This document shows, one piece after another, positions 26,829-30,754 of a stretch of 64,000 bases of DNA. The DNA comes from Escherichia phage vB_EcoM_ESCO47. The stretch lies in the sequence record OM386662.1; one strand, written 5' to 3'. Under the pieces are notes generated by a model. The model had not been told where the DNA came from and made no database searches. It saw only the letters and a program-made list of their open reading frames with translations. Numbering within the stretch: position 1 is the first letter of the stretch; every line of letters begins with the position of its first letter. The position numbers and the translations under genes are program-made.

Positions 26829-27821
26829 ATGTTACCTGTCATCAGAAAACTTATTTCTCCAAAAGAACTGGCTGAGATTATTCCTTTGTCGGAAGCTTAC
26901 GCATCACAAGTGGCTTCTCATCGCGAACAAGTTAATTCGATTATGAACGGTGAAGACCCACGCAAACTTATTGTTGTAGGTCCTTGTTCAATTCATGACC
27001 CTATTGCTGCTGTTGAATACGGCAAACGTCTGGCTGAACTTCAAACTCGTCTTCCTAATGTTCTGTTAGTGATGCGCGTTTATTTTGAAAAGCCTCGAAC
27101 TACCGTAGGTTGGAAAGGTCTTGTAAATGATCCATATCTTGACGGAAGTTTTGATATGAACCACGGTCTTATAGTTGCACGAACATTGTGTCGTAAACTT
27201 CTGCGTATGGGACTTCCATTAGCAACTGAAGTATTAGACCCATTCACGATTAAGTATCTTTCTGGTATTTTCTCATGGGTTGCTATTGGCGCCCGTACGA
27301 CTGAAAGTCAGACACATCGTGAAATTGCTTCAGGTCTACCGATGTGCGTAGGCTTCAAGAACGCAACCAATGGTTCTATTAAAGTAGCTACAGACGCGAT
27401 GTATAGTGCCGCCCAGCCTCATCGGTATATGGGTATGGACGTCGATGGTACTGTAGGCATTGTTGAAGCTGAAGGTAATCAGAATACGCATATCGTATTG
27501 CGTGGTGGGACTAACGGTCCGAACTATCATTCTTCTGATATTCAAGAAGCTTCTAACAAAGCAAGTGCGGTAGGTCTGAATCATTATGTAATGGTTGACT
27601 GTAGCCATGCAAACGCTGGTGGGTATTATAGCAATCAAATTGATATTGGTAAAAATTTAGCAGCTAATGATTTGGTCAAAGGAATTATGATAGAATCATT
27701 CCTACATGAAGGAAATCAAAAAATTTCTGATAATATGTCCTATGGCGTTTCCATTACCGATGCGTGCATCAGTTGGGAACAAACTAAAGAGCTGTTAACT
27801 TATATTAATAAGGTTCAATAA
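26829..27821 (+). CDS. 3-deoxy-D-arabino-heptulosonate 7-phosphate (DAHP) synthase, class I (AroG/AroF/AroH-like)
   Basis: 330 aa; near-identical blocks to recalled E. coli AroG: GPCSIHDP, RVYFEKPRTTVGWKGL, WVAIGARTTESQ.HRE.ASGL, VGFKN, CSHAN, ESFLHEGNQ, ITDAC; AAGGA SD; phage-like codon usage. Confidence 0.9.
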   Translation: MLPVIRKLISPKELAEIIPLSEAYASQVASHREQVNSIMNGEDPRKLIVVGPCSIHDPIAAVEYGKRLAELQTRLPNVLLVMRVYFEKPRTTVGWKGLVNDPYLDGSFDMNHGLIVARTLCRKLLRMGLPLATEVLDPFTIKYLSGIFSWVAIGARTTESQTHREIASGLPMCVGFKNATNGSIKVATDAMYSAAQPHRYMGMDVDGTVGIVEAEGNQNTHIVLRGGTNGPNYHSSDIQEASNKASAVGLNHYVMVDCSHANAGGYYSNQIDIGKNLAANDLVKGIMIESFLHEGNQKISDNMSYGVSITDACISWEQTKELLTYINKVQ

Positions 27822-28402
27822 TGAAAGCTAGCACATATCTTCAAATTGCTTATTTGATTTCTCAAGAATCAAAATGTTGTTCATGGAAAGTTGGTGCCGT
27901 CATTGAAAAAGATGGACGCATTATCTCTACTGGATATAATGGTTCACCTGCAGGTGGCGTTAACTGTTGCGAACAGGCATCCGAAAATGGTTGGTTGAAG
28001 AATAAACCGAGTCCGGTCATCGTTGCTGGACATAAAGAAGGCACTACGGCATTTGGACGGGCAGATAATTTTGTTTTGGCTAAAGAACATCGAGCGGCTC
28101 ATAGTGCATGGTCTGCTAATAATGAAATCCATGCTGAACTGAATGCAATTTTATTTGCAGCTCGTAAAGGTAATTCTATTGAAGGTGCTACGTTGTATAC
28201 GACGCTTTCTCCGTGTCCTGATTGCACTAAAGCTATTACACAGTCGGGTATTAAAAAGGTTGTATACGCAGAATTATATGACAGATCTCCTGAAAATTGG
28301 GCAGACATTCTTAAACAAGCTGGTATTGAAGTAATTCAGTACTCTCGTAATAATCTTCGTTCTCTGAATTGGGAACAAATCCGAAACTTTTGTGGTGAAT
28401 AA
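27821..28402 (+). CDS. cd: dCMP deaminase
   Basis: 193 aa (T4 length); zinc motifs HAELNA and SPCPDC. Confidence 0.95.
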   Translation: MKASTYLQIAYLISQESKCCSWKVGAVIEKDGRIISTGYNGSPAGGVNCCEQASENGWLKNKPSPVIVAGHKEGTTAFGRADNFVLAKEHRAAHSAWSANNEIHAELNAILFAARKGNSIEGATLYTTLSPCPDCTKAITQSGIKKVVYAELYDRSPENWADILKQAGIEVIQYSRNNLRSLNWEQIRNFCGE

Positions 28403-28403
28403 T

Positions 28404-28700
28404 ATGATTTTAACTGAACAAGAAACTACGGTTCTTCGTGAACGTATTAAAACTATTCTGTCTGTAGGCGTTCATTGTGTTGTATTTGAAAAGGCTAATG
28501 GTGATGTTCGTACGATGTTTGCCTCCCGCGATGAACTTGAAGTCAAATATGAAAATAGAAATCCGGCAACAGAAGTTCGTTCTGAACCTCGTGAATCAGT
28601 TCGAGCATTCGATACCAAGTTAGGTCAGTGGCGTTCTTTTCGCCTTGATAAAGTAATTTCGGTTGATGGTACTCCGGTAGAACGTTTGCTTCTTCTGTAA
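28404..28700 (+). CDS. hypothetical protein (31.x position)
   Basis: ORF 28392 starts at GTG; first ATG at 28404 gives 98 aa. Confidence 0.5.
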   Translation: MILTEQETTVLRERIKTILSVGVHCVVFEKANGDVRTMFASRDELEVKYENRNPATEVRSEPRESVRAFDTKLGQWRSFRLDKVISVDGTPVERLLLL

Positions 28701-28702
28701 TT

Positions 28703-28727
28703 TGCTTTACGTTTAATATGTTATTAT
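28703..28727 (+). promoter_or_regulatory. MotA-box middle promoter for gene 31
   Basis: TGCTTTA 28703-28709, TATTAT 28722-28727. Confidence 0.45.
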
Positions 28728-28757
28728 TAATCTATCGTTAAACAAAAAGGAAATAAG

Positions 28758-29090
28758 ATGTCTGAAGTACAACTCCCAATTCGTGCTGTTGGTGAATATG
28801 TTATTCTGGTTTCTGAACCCGCTCAAGCAGGTGATGAAGAAGTTACCGAATCAGGACTTGTGATTGGTAAACGTGTTCAAGGTGAAGTTCCTGAACTATG
28901 TGTAGTTCATTCTGTAGGTCCTGATGTTCCTGAAGGTTTCTGTGAAGTTGGTGATTTGACTCCACTACCAGTTGGACAAATTCGAAATGTTCCACATCCA
29001 TTTGTGGCTTTAGGACTTAAACAACCTAAAGAAATTAAACAGAAATTTGTCACTTGTCATTACAAAGCAATCCCGTGTCTTTATAAGTGA
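28758..29090 (+). CDS. 31: gp31, GroES-like co-chaperonin
   Basis: 110 aa; [34 protein letters not shown] matches recalled T4 gp31; MotA-box middle promoter upstream. Confidence 0.9.
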
Positions 29091-29216
29091 TATAAATAAT
29101 AATATGAATTGAGTTCCAATTCTATGAGGTAGTCTACAACTGAGAGATCTGTCGAAAGAAGATGAAATTCAGAAGAACGTGACTACCAAGTTTTAATCTC
29201 TAACGAGAATTTTTAA

Positions 29217-29465
29217 ATGATTAAACAATTACAACACGCTCTCGAACTGCAACGCTCTGCATGGAACAACGGTCACGAAAACTACGGTGCATCAATTGAT
29301 GTTGAAGCCGAAGCACTGGAAATCCTGCAGTATTTCAAACATCTGAATCCTGTCCAAGCTGATCTTCGTGATGTTCTGGCTCAGAAAGATGAACTGAAAT
29401 ATGCTAAGCCTCTGGCTTCTGCCGCACGTAAAGCAGTTCGTCATTTTGTTATTACTTTGAAATAA
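29217..29465 (+). CDS. rIII: RIII lysis-inhibition accessory protein
   Basis: 82 aa (T4 RIII length), position downstream of gene 31. Confidence 0.75.
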   Translation: MIKQLQHALELQRSAWNNGHENYGASIDVEAEALEILQYFKHLNPVQADLRDVLAQKDELKYAKPLASAARKAVRHFVITLK

Positions 29466-29628
29466 TTGCTATCATGCGTCAGCAAAAGGTTAGCTGTGTA
29501 AGTCATGGTAGGTATGATGACAGGTTTATGGTTATCCTGTCGGTAAATATACAAAACCTATGTTCCCCTCGAGGGCTTACGCAGGCAATGTCAATAAGTC
29601 CTGCATTTTCATTTAAAGAGAATTTATA

Positions 29629-29808
29629 ATGGCAAAACAAGCTAAAGCAAAGAAAGCAGTTGAAAAGAAAGTTGATGGTACCTCTAAACGCGCTGGATAC
29701 AAGCGTGGGTCGAACTCTCGTATTAATCAAACCGTTGAGAAGATCATGCGCAGAGCACGTGCAGTTCTTCGAGATGATGCTTCTCGTTTTGGAAAGGTTG
29801 TTGCATAA
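29629..29808 (+). CDS. small basic protein (59 aa)
   Basis: ATG with AAGAGA SD, Lys/Arg-rich, followed immediately by a UUCG hairpin terminator; below the ORF-track size cutoff. Confidence 0.45.
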   Translation: MAKQAKAKKAVEKKVDGTSKRAGYKRGSNSRINQTVEKIMRRARAVLRDDASRFGKVVA

Positions 29809-29813
29809 TTTTA

Positions 29814-29835
29814 GGGAGACTTCGGTCTCCCTTTT
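29814..29835 (+). terminator. intrinsic terminator (identical hairpin to 15685)
   Basis: GGGAGAC-UUCG-GUCUCCC plus UUUU. Confidence 0.7.
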
Positions 29836-29872
29836 GTGCGTTTAGGGCAGAAAAAGTTTAAAAAAAAAAGAT

Positions 29873-29901
29873 GTTTACTCTCCTGTAGGATGTGTTACTA
29901 T
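29873..29901 (+). promoter_or_regulatory. early promoter
   Basis: GTTTAC 29873-29878, TACTAT 29896-29901. Confidence 0.6.
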
Positions 29902-29942
29902 AGACTTGTACCACCTAATCAATAAAACAACCGGAGAATAAA

Positions 29943-30314
29943 ATGAACACTATCAATTTAAATGCTACAATTAAATGCCGTGACCATGATGGATATAAAT
30001 CTCAAGTTGTTAACGAGTTACAGTGGATGGTTCGTTCAGTTCAAGGTGATGTGGTTTATTGTACAACTCCTGATGGCCCTTCAGACGATTTTTGTTATCA
30101 TATCGAAATCGAAAACTTTTTCACTGGTGAAATTTACCGTCTGAATTCTACAGTTTATGGCTGTATTCGTTCTAAAACTTACGAAGATGAAGAAACTGGT
30201 TACTCTGAAGATGTTGTATGGTACGAAAACGCCAGAAATCGCGCAGAGACATTAATCGAGAAGATTAAAGCAAAAGGTGTTATTGATTCAGCTAAGTGGA
30301 CAAAAATCAAATAA
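29943..30314 (+). CDS. hypothetical early protein (30.x)
   Basis: 123-aa ORF, early promoter and GGAGAA SD. Confidence 0.6.
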   Translation: MNTINLNATIKCRDHDGYKSQVVNELQWMVRSVQGDVVYCTTPDGPSDDFCYHIEIENFFTGEIYRLNSTVYGCIRSKTYEDEETGYSEDVVWYENARNRAETLIEKIKAKGVIDSAKWTKIK

Positions 30315-30318
30315 AAAT

Positions 30319-30347
30319 GTTTACTTTGGTACAGGATATGTTATTAT
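30319..30347 (+). promoter_or_regulatory. early promoter
   Basis: GTTTAC 30319-30324, TATTAT 30342-30347. Confidence 0.6.
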
Positions 30348-30388
30348 ATACCTGTACCAACAAACAACTTAAACATCTGGAGAATAAA

Positions 30389-30754
30389 ATGAACTACACC
30401 AACTTCGAACGCAAATATGTTTCTAACGGTATCGCTGGTTCTATTGATACGATTTGCTTATGGAAACATAACAATGGTTCAGTATGTGAAATTGAGCAGT
30501 ATATGACACCTAATTATGTTTATATGCGATTTGAAAATGGTATCACCCTTTCAATTACAATGGAAGGTTCCAACTTCAAAATCGCTCTGGATGATGACTT
30601 CCGTCAACGTGATTTAGGTACTCATCCTTGTTGGAATGGTGATAATCGTAAGCTTCTGGTTAAAACTTGGATTCGCCATATTCTGAGTAATAGAGCTAAA
30701 CCTGAACATCTTGAAGCAATCTTTGATGTAGTTCTTAACGAATTCGATATTTGA
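30389..30754 (+). CDS. hypothetical early protein (30.x)
   Basis: ORF 30296..30754; ATG at 30389 chosen because the early promoter and GGAGAA SD lie directly upstream. Confidence 0.6.
   Translation: MNYTNFERKYVSNGIAGSIDTICLWKHNNGSVCEIEQYMTPNYVYMRFENGITLSITMEGSNFKIALDDDFRQRDLGTHPCWNGDNRKLLVKTWIRHILSNRAKPEHLEAIFDVVLNEFDI

Follow-up and report, generated by a model that had tools for sequence, protein, structure and literature searches.

Within a 64,000-nt stretch of the genome of Escherichia phage vB_EcoM_ESCO47 (sequence record OM386662.1; hereafter the window), a Mosigvirus of the RB69-like T-even type, genes rIII and 30.9 are separated by a gap of 163 nt (29466-29628) without a conserved open reading frame (ORF). 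These genes belong to a run of fixed order, encoded throughout on the + strand, which comprises cd (27821-28402; Pfam dCMP deaminase), 31.1 (28392-28700; Pfam WYL_2), gene 31 (28758-29090; Pfam Cpn10), rIII (29217-29465; PHROG 1457, E 6e-42), the gap, 30.9 (29629-29808; PHROG 1427), a terminator hairpin with a UUCG loop that was recognised by eye (29814-29835), and 30.8 (29943-30314; Pfam PF06019). rIII controls lysis timing and is the upstream cistron of the transcription unit that includes 30.9, while 30.9 itself encodes a 59-aa basic protein of unknown function. A single-sequence AlphaFold model of gp30.9 contains two helices (mean pLDDT 73) and is uninformative on function; the protein has no Pfam family, and a profile search against the solved structures of the Protein Data Bank returned only matches of E ~1. 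The rIII product interacts with ribosomal protein S1 (PMC9409239). The gap is locally the longest of the intergenic spaces, yet it is close in length to its neighbours, which measure 126 nt before rIII and 134 nt after 30.9.

A first-pass annotation, made from the letters of the window, had drawn attention to this gap as one that contains palindromes and precedes a small basic-protein gene, and its positions were exact for both repeats, GACAGG (29519-29524) separated by 11 nt from CCTGTC (29536-29541), and the 10-bp palindrome CCCTCGAGGG (29566-29575). The flanking genes were also correctly described, the gap following rIII and preceding 30.9. Six-bp inverted repeats with a loop of 3-15 nt are, however, found at 0.96 per 163 nt in the window, which is the chance level, with ten-bp palindromes at 0.15 per 163 nt. 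Likewise, the folding energy of the whole gap was unremarkable compared with shuffled sequences, giving z = -0.82 for the + strand and z = -1.84 for the - strand. Since the repeats alone are no more than chance and the fold energy is ordinary, the case made below rests wholly on comparison with relatives.

We compared the locus across Tequatrovirus, Mosigvirus, Dhakavirus, Gelderlandvirus, Jiaodavirus and Karamvirus, together with lineages from IMG/VR (individual loci are given as L numbers), and a spacer of 153-395 nt was present between rIII and 30.9 in every T-even genus fetched. The gap used as a query matched 771 phage records, of which 267 cover at least 80% of the query, and the remaining matches listed mostly span its 3' 70%. 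Across 29100-29950 the closest sequences are those of Escherichia phages 55, AV109 and ATK47 (92-93% identity). Conservation in relatives, which had been proposed as a check, was found for the 3' 115 nt of the gap but only in part for the 5' 48 nt (29466-29513), which are missing from T4. Identity over 29514-29628 is 92% with T4, 91% with T2, 94% with VR5 and 89% with JS10, compared with 83-84% for rIII and, for 30.9, 93% in T4 and 75% in Dhakavirus, so that this stretch, although non-coding, is conserved no less than the genes on either side of it. Alignment of the spacers showed that they are built of modules which come, go, or change order between genera. In the records read, the spacer is either unannotated or occasionally labelled 'hypothetical protein', and the literature searched contained no description of the rIII-30.9 spacer or of such an RNA in T4. 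A stretch of GenBank record MG065645.1, entitled 'Campylobacter phage A145' (109884-110136), is also ~90% identical to the T-even rIII-30.9 spacer, and is probably due to contamination or a mixed assembly.

The spacer did not resemble the known RNAs with which it was compared. Searches with the Rfam 15 covariance models, covering 28500-30500, 29466-29640 and eight relatives, yielded only chance-level matches to unrelated families, and ARAGORN, run on the window and on the spacers of T4, T2, VR5, PKO111 and Karamvirus, detected no transfer RNA (tRNA) or transfer-messenger RNA. Origin from a tRNA remnant was rejected, as the likeness amounts to a 13-nt repeat in common with the start of tRNA-Gln in L027 and ARAGORN was negative. 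There was also no similarity between the spacer and the T4 stable RNAs rnaC and rnaD, and no match among 5,426 Escherichia coli genomes that would indicate host origin.

The one sizeable ORF in the gap is ATG-initiated, encodes 51 aa and spans most of it (29474-29629), and with several GenBank records annotating a 'hypothetical protein' there, a small protein could be encoded either by this ORF or by a short one that starts at AUGAUG and runs over the pseudoknot described below. We find this scarcely credible, as the frame of the 51-aa ORF is not kept in relatives: it stops at 32 aa in phage 55, is without a start in ATK47, is frameshifted in T2 and L016, and lacks its 5' part in T4. Indels between relatives in the gap include those of a single nucleotide, no Shine-Dalgarno sequence precedes the ORF, and its product has no PHROG or Pfam match. 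The C at 29570 that creates the palindrome is also the base that removes the TGA with which the ORF ends in relatives. The ORF from AUGAUG (29513) was discarded as its length ranges from 2 to 34 codons in a variable frame, and so was a mini-ORF (MYFSKMED) in the Karamvirus-type leader, whose start is absent in Gelderlandvirus and whose frame varies. The earlier statement that the gap holds no convincing ORF consequently stands.

On the + strand, 29519-29561 can be folded into an H-type pseudoknot that ends 68 nt before the AUG of 30.9. Stem 1 is the first repeat of the first-pass annotation, with GACAGG (29519-24) paired to CCUGUC (29536-41), and its 11-nt loop, UUUAUGGUUAU, includes GGUU (29530-33) as the 5' strand of stem 2. 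An A-rich single-stranded tail (29542-29554), GGUAAAUAUACAA with consensus GUUAAAUAUCCAA, then forms loop 3 and leads into the 3' strand of stem 2 (29555-29561), where AACC (29555-58) pairs with GGUU. Stem 1 is 91% paired among relatives, with both sides changing at four of the six pairs; its outer half appears as GAC/GUC, GUC/GAC, GUG/CAC or GGC/GCC and its inner half as AGG/CCU, UGG/CCA, UGG/CCG or UAG/CUA. RNAalifold predicted this stem independently. The four core pairs of stem 2 are 100% paired in 27 sequences, three of the positions showing three pair types each, and the helix lengthens to 7-9 bp in other genera. Thus, where the E. coli phages have GGUU/AACC, we observed CAAGGUU/AACCUUG in SEA1, CAAGGUU/AAUCUUG in L021 (with a G.U pair), GUUGGUU/AACCAAC in Jiaodavirus, UUAGUAGUU/AACUACUAA in L063, GGUAGUU/AACUGCU in L041 and UUGUGAG/CUCACAA in Karamvirus. 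While these flanking stems change, tail columns G30, A33, A34, A35, A37, C40 and A43 are invariant or near-invariant (alignment A3), and the invariant loop and tail bases of the pseudoknot are A21, C23, G30, A33, A34 and A43. Because its loop and tail bases are invariant and its stems changeable, the pseudoknot is a likely recognition site.

In a hand-built alignment of 27 distinct sequences, 84.6% of cells were paired compared with 65.8% in shuffles, and covariation was 0.481 compared with 0.141, a value of 0.481 being reached in 0 of 500 shuffles. Sliding the 3' partners as a control gave 31-53% paired, and 10 of the 13 pseudoknot pairs change on both sides. As this larger alignment had been built with the structure in mind, the count was repeated on a plain, unguided MAFFT alignment of 16 sequences, where pairing was again higher than in shuffles (85.1% compared with 69.3%), as was covariation (0.406 compared with 0.144). 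By these measures of aligned sequence, both stems covary across seven-plus genera. Furthermore, G.U pairs outnumber A.C pairs in the pseudoknot stems by nine to three and all genes lie on the + strand, which together indicate that the folded molecule is the + strand RNA.

A covariance model made from stem 1 and the tail (R1) found one copy in the 64-kb window, at 65 bits, the next best hit scoring 13 bits (E 0.37). The same model found one copy in each of 58 T-even loci from at least seven genera, among them L051, L057, L065 and L068, which were outside the model seed and also fit the pseudoknot, while no copy was detected in two KVP40-like loci. These results bear on whether the gap is instead leftover spacer, composed of decayed genes, tRNAs or cassettes with palindromes that arose by chance and conservation that reflects recent exchange. 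The chance level of the repeats would agree with this, as would the mosaic character of the region, in which even close relatives differ in whether they have blocks A, B and W and the rIII leader is closer to a Tequatrovirus than to the nearest Mosigvirus relatives, and as would the occurrence in L027 and L058 of blocks among clustered tRNA genes, with a flanking repeat of 13 nt that is also the beginning of tRNA-Gln. We nonetheless consider leftover spacer quite improbable, given a pseudoknot that occurs once in each locus, changes that are compensatory where decay would not be, an identity that equals or exceeds that of the adjacent coding genes, and the negative outcome of ARAGORN for tRNA-like genes, both in the window and in the spacers of typical relatives. 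As judged from the comparison of relatives, the gap is evidently a non-coding sequence under purifying selection whose pairings are kept by compensatory changes on the + strand, and it is very probable that it represents a selected RNA structure.

Directly after the pseudoknot, the motif GUWCCCYUYGAGGRCUUG (H2; 29562-29579, + strand), which occurs once in the window, holds the 10-bp palindrome (29566-75) in the form of a 3-bp CCC/GGG mini-hairpin. Among the sequences read, the perfect palindrome CCCTCGAGGG was seen only in the window phage and L068, most relatives having CCCTTGAGGG, CCCTTTGAGGG or CCCTTCGAGGG at this site. Relatives retain CCC-N4-5-GGG arms, with H2 taking the forms CCCUUGAGGG, CCCUUUGAGGG, CCCUUCGAGGG, CCCUUCGAGGA, CCCUUAGGGG or CCCUUUAUGGGG, and CUUG always comes next. 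As the arms are kept at variable spacing, H2 fits a small RNA hairpin or recognition motif and not a duplex-DNA operator. In several genera (L024, L041, L047, L051 and L052) H2 is located directly after the rIII stop and ahead of the pseudoknot, and it is therefore a separate module.

The first-pass annotation had offered a protein-binding region as one possibility, and at the level of DNA the palindromes might be sites for dimeric proteins, part of a promoter or operator, or an origin-type repeat. The perfect palindrome of the window is in keeping with this, there is one weak promoter-like match, and in the GenBank record of ATK47 a stretch of 10 bp just ahead of the 30.9 start carries the label 'ori type 2 repeat'. 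A DNA signal is nevertheless extremely unlikely, as the perfect palindrome is confined to two of the sequences read and the CCC-GGG spacing varies between 4 and 5 nt, which an operator would not tolerate; compensatory changes keep the stems while altering their sequence; and the G.U pairs that outnumber A.C pairs are meaningless in duplex DNA. In addition, neither a MotA box accompanied by a -10 element, nor the late promoter TATAAATA, nor an early promoter of the form TTTACW-N17-TAYWAT was found in the gap. Three candidate promoters within it were rejected: a late promoter, for which there is no TATAAATA and for which GTTAAATA is not retained in SEA1; a MotA middle promoter at GGGCUUGCG, where the downstream sequence varies by genus and there is no conserved -10; and TATGAT (29509-14) as a -10, which is without a -35 or TG and has other modules upstream of it in other genera.

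The remainder of the gap is occupied by three further hairpins, all on the + strand. At its 5' end is a two-tier hairpin, W (29469-29511), obtained from the minimum-free-energy fold, with an outer stem of CUAUCAUG (29469-76) and CAUGGUAG (29504-11) and an inner stem of CAGC (29480-83) and GCUG (29493-96). W lies in the 48 nt that T4 lacks and is present in Mosigvirus and T2; by eye, its inner CAGC/GCUG becomes CAGA/UCUG in ATK47 and T2 and its outer CAUG/CAUG becomes CACG/CGUG in ATK47, and L052 has a W-like core within a different closing stem. Hairpin H3 (29581-29604) begins one base past the H2 motif in all genera and pairs GCAGG (29581-85) with CCUGC (29600-04) around a 14-nt loop, CAAUGUCAAUAAGU. 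The five pairs at the base of its stem are 100% paired in 10 sequence types, four of the five changing on both sides, and whole stems have been swapped, with GCAGG/CCUGC, GAACUGG/CCAGUUC, GGGAGC/GCUCCC, GGGAAC/GUUCCC and GUGGAG/CUCCAC all represented. The last hairpin, H4 (29605-29623), appears in both the minimum-free-energy and centroid folds and is weak, with AUUUUC (29605-10) and GAGAAU (29618-23) enclosing AUUUAAA; its stem is inferred from these models. The 3' arm of H4 carries AAGAGA, the Shine-Dalgarno-like sequence of 30.9, 8 nt before the AUG, and a comparable arrangement, UUCUCC...GGAAGA, is seen in other genera.

The place of H3 is taken in Karamvirus and Jiaodavirus by a three-tier hairpin of 58 nt, which has conserved internal loops and is capped by a GAAA tetraloop. 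This hairpin also occurs in the window upstream of rIII, in the gene 31-rIII spacer (29128-29187, + strand, 60 nt), where it reads GGUAGUC / UACAA / CUGAG / AG / AUCU-G-UC-GAAA-GA-AGAU / GAAA / UUCAG / AAGAACGU / GACUACC and has the GAAA tetraloop, a bulged G and the conserved internal loops. It is 96.6% paired, with changes on both sides in 6 of 18 pairs, and has no Rfam match. For the E. coli-phage type, RNAalifold prefers a pairing of AGGGCUU (29572-78) with AAGUCCU (29596-602) that would exclude both H2 and H3. In the E. coli and Gelderlandvirus types this pairing is conserved, without covariation, and in L063 it is disrupted; this predicted alternative could be a conformational switch or an artefact. 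An attenuator in which the 3' arm of stem 1 (CCUGUC) would pair with the 5' arm of H3 (GCAGG) was rejected, the complementarity being found only in the E. coli-phage type and not in Gelderlandvirus or Karamvirus.

The absence of a promoter consensus from the gap had been nearly rightly called, the exception being one weak sigma-70-like match from a promoter scan, TTGTTA-18-TATCAT with TG (9/12; 29446-29475, + strand), which straddles the rIII stop and is a candidate promoter. The equivalent junction in T2 reads TTTACG-N17-TACTAT, near the T4 early-promoter consensus TTTACW-N17-TAYWAT (PMC4122927). A scan for intrinsic terminators returned 0 sites in 29000-30400, although it also missed the hairpin at 29814-29835, and H3 falls short of a terminator: its stem has 5 bp, its loop is 14 nt long and its U run is interrupted. 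Ahead of rIII lies TATAAATA (29091-98), a late promoter of the T4 type, and in T4 the 30.9 RNA is of the 'early' class and gp30.9 was not detected (PMC9697503 supplement). We somewhat favour the view that the element acts in cis on the expression of 30.9 and/or rIII, as there is no terminator between these genes and a strong one after 30.9, and as the late promoter lies ahead of rIII while the T4 30.9 RNA is early and its protein undetected. In every locus that was read through to a start codon the element directly precedes it, and this start codon is nearly always that of 30.9.

Of the three options in the first-pass annotation, namely a small RNA, a processing site or a protein-binding region, what they have in common, a functional structured RNA element, was upheld, while a free small RNA fits less well than a cis leader because there is no terminator, the Shine-Dalgarno sequence is in the last hairpin and the element abuts a start codon. 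Such a free-standing non-coding RNA, expressed from its own promoter or cut from the rIII-30.9 transcript, would act in trans, for instance by base pairing or as a decoy for an RNA-binding protein of the host or the phage. The weak promoter-like site does overlap the start of the gap, and in T2 and the Dhakaviruses closer matches to an early promoter occur immediately upstream of the modules; a U-rich run, CAUUUUCAUUU, follows H3, with UUUUAUU after the equivalent hairpin in L024, L047 and L052; modules have been exchanged between the rIII and 30.9 leaders; and the extra 141-nt conserved structured domain of relatives, described below, seems more than a simple leader needs. Set against this, a transcript from the promoter-like site would miss the 5' arm of W, yet that arm covaries, no small RNA from here has been reported from T4 in the literature searched, and the negative terminator scan and the position of the last hairpin and start codon also argue for the leader, so that we regard a free small RNA as rather unlikely.

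The explanation that we prefer is that the gap would form a structured intercistronic leader of 30.9 on the rIII-30.9 mRNA, made up of a string of modules that fold independently. This leader would act post-transcriptionally and in cis, setting the translation of gp30.9 and/or the lifetime of the mRNA, and may additionally shield the rIII message at its 3' end. The pseudoknot would probably be the recognition site of a trans-acting factor, and we think a protein more likely than a metabolite as its partner. T4 gp32 and ribosomal protein S15 offer an analogy for gp30.9 itself as a candidate, and an alternative is another RNA-binding protein of phage or host. Several observations count against this explanation. 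Stem 2 has just 4 bp in the window (GGUU/AACC), the + strand folding energy of the gap is ordinary, and H4, the hairpin at the ribosome-binding site (RBS), is weak and shows no covariation. The sequences compared are related, so that independent compensatory events are few and come from perhaps six to eight lineages, and the alignment of 27 sequences was shaped by the structure it was used to assess. Module order differs by genus and the distance from pseudoknot to start ranges from ~70 nt in the window to ~300 nt in Jiaodavirus, which means that the pseudoknot cannot act by simply covering the RBS. The type of H3 and the type of 30.9 protein do not co-vary, Jiaodavirus combining a window-like protein with a Karamvirus-type hairpin, and this weakens the idea of autoregulation for H3.

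A further domain of 141 nt, here termed block B (CGGCAAGUGCAUGCUACC...GGUGUGCAACAGAUAAGAG), lies between rIII and 30.9 in relatives only and is missing from the window. Examples are found in L007 (JS10; ~560-700) and L008 (VR5), and it was present in 407 phage records with Escherichia, Klebsiella, Enterobacter, Citrobacter, Edwardsiella and other hosts, 388 of these matches having an identity of at least 90%. Sixteen of 17 extracted sequences are equal in length, and RNAalifold predicted 44 pairs, 14 of them with compensatory changes, a closing helix included. Block B was never annotated as an RNA among the matches listed and has no Rfam match. In two IMG/VR T4-like contigs, L027 (1285-1640) and L058, a T4-type spacer made up of block A and the pseudoknot core occurs within a tRNA gene cluster, where it drives a 28-codon remnant of the rIII C-terminus and the unit is flanked by the direct repeat TTTATTGGAGATT, which is also the start of tRNA-Gln. 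From this arrangement, the leader and its start codon seem to have travelled together as one cassette.

More tentatively, and with less confidence than for action in cis, the rIII-30.9 spacer of enterobacterial T-even phages might be a hitherto unrecognised family of modular structured RNA that serves as a specific sensor or decoy. This possibility would combine a universal riboswitch-like pseudoknot core with the near-invariant multi-helix domain of 141 nt in >400 genomes; the RNA would bind a defined protein or small molecule and so control 30.9 and/or rIII, or would act in trans on the host, and the window would carry a minimal version of the family, beyond generic mRNA structure.

Several features of the surrounding region were also observed. 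Directly upstream of cd is a gene for a class I DAHP synthase (26829-27821, + strand; Pfam PF00793, E 1e-75), which is the first enzyme of aromatic amino-acid synthesis. gp31.1 (28392-28700, + strand) has a match (E 2e-9) to WYL_2, an SH3 beta-barrel fold of the Sm-like type that often binds nucleic acids, and with its gene in the run that also contains the structured leaders, gp31.1 is, on its predicted fold, a candidate partner. The rIII leader (29091-29216) is 98% identical to that of Tequatrovirus teqdroes and only 81% identical to that of ATK47, while 30.9 of the window is 99% identical to ATK47 and 93% to T4, and recombination joints lie within or close to the structured spacers around rIII and 30.9. 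Downstream of 30.9, two PeSL-like units were noted on the + strand (29814-29905 and 30318-30347): the terminator hairpin GGGAGAC-UUCG-GUCUCCC with its U run follows 30.9, and T4-type early promoters, GTTTAC-N17-TACTAT and TTTACT-16-TATTAT, precede 30.8 and the next gene.

PeSL (promoter-early stem-loop) cassettes are modular, shuffled intergenic units of T-even genomes (PMC4122927), and the gap resembles them in being such a unit. A true PeSL-like unit lies just downstream, with the terminator at 29814-29835, GTTTAC near 29873 and TACTAT near 29896. In contrast, 29466-29628 has no terminator stem-loop with a U run, no TTTAC and no TTTACW-N17-TAYWAT, and its modules are kept as RNA structures and not as promoter sequences.

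The pseudoknot is also similar to small H-type aptamers, among them the preQ1-I riboswitch (RF00522), with a stem of 5-7 bp, a loop of ~11 nt and, on the 3' side, an A-rich tail that pairs with the loop through its end. The likeness is one of topology only, both helices of the 30.9 leader being supported by covariation, and it raises the question of whether the pseudoknot is a small-molecule aptamer of this fold type through which a metabolite controls 30.9. The two agree in the stem, a loop rich in U, the invariant C that precedes the 3' arm and the A-rich tail that pairs with the loop, and in a pattern of conservation where stems change while loop and tail bases stay invariant. The tail of the published 33-nt Thermoanaerobacter preQ1-I sequence, UUAACAAAAC, resembles GUUAACAAUUCAAAAC of SEA1, a likeness to be read as a lead and not a test. 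A riboswitch is very improbable nonetheless, as no Rfam riboswitch model, including the three preQ1 classes, gave a match at E up to 10 in a search of 175 nt (29466-29640) with permissive filters. The tail is ~5 nt longer than that of preQ1-I and the pseudoknot is at a variable distance from the RBS and expression platform; the downstream gene encodes a small basic protein and is followed by a terminator, instead of genes for the synthesis or transport of queuosine or 7-deazaguanines or other metabolic or transport genes; and no conserved alternative pairing was found, the 1:2/2:3/3:4 attenuator arrangement being possible only in the E. coli-phage type.

Hairpins that sequester the RBS are known from T4 genes, e (lysozyme) among them. 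The 30.9 leader is like that of e in that, on read-through transcripts from upstream, a hairpin holds the Shine-Dalgarno sequence in its 3' arm, but its hairpin is weak, with six mostly A-U or G.U pairs, and unlike in e there is no late promoter inside it, which leaves no route to an open transcript. With the leader of E. coli rpsO, which encodes S15, it shares the arrangement of a small basic protein gene behind a pseudoknot-bearing leader (rpsO in PMC3014915), although gp30.9 differs in having no detectable similarity to solved structures or Pfam families.

T4 and its relatives are among the best-studied viruses, and the closest parallel to the 30.9 leader within them that we considered is the gene 32 leader of T4 and RB69, the autogenous translational operator of gp32, where a T-even gene likewise has an H-type pseudoknot in its 5' leader. 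In both, the pseudoknot lies tens of nucleotides upstream of the start and is conserved in T-even phages, the encoded protein is of nucleic-acid-binding type, and an A/U-rich sequence of the UUAAA type comes after stem 1 (PMC3014915). The two nevertheless differ in sequence: by eye there is no similarity to the gene 32 leader of the same phage (~14.66-14.77 kb), and covariance model R1 had no match there. The tract from pseudoknot to RBS is unstructured in gene 32, whereas in the 30.9 leader 29562-29623 is filled by H2, H3 and H4. According to a 2010 review of post-transcriptional control in T4-type phages, the gene 32 pseudoknot is possibly the only viral one used in translational autoregulation. 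The 30.9 leader appears to be an undescribed RNA motif of a known general kind, and since 30.9 encodes a basic protein of unknown function, the leader may offer a handle on its role. Whole hairpin modules have been swapped, both from genus to genus and between the leaders of rIII and 30.9, which illustrates how untranslated regions of phages evolve. Alongside the gene 32 operator, a second conserved pseudoknot leader, which hundreds of sequenced T-even phages carry, T4 among them, would be a new and testable regulatory RNA in a model system.

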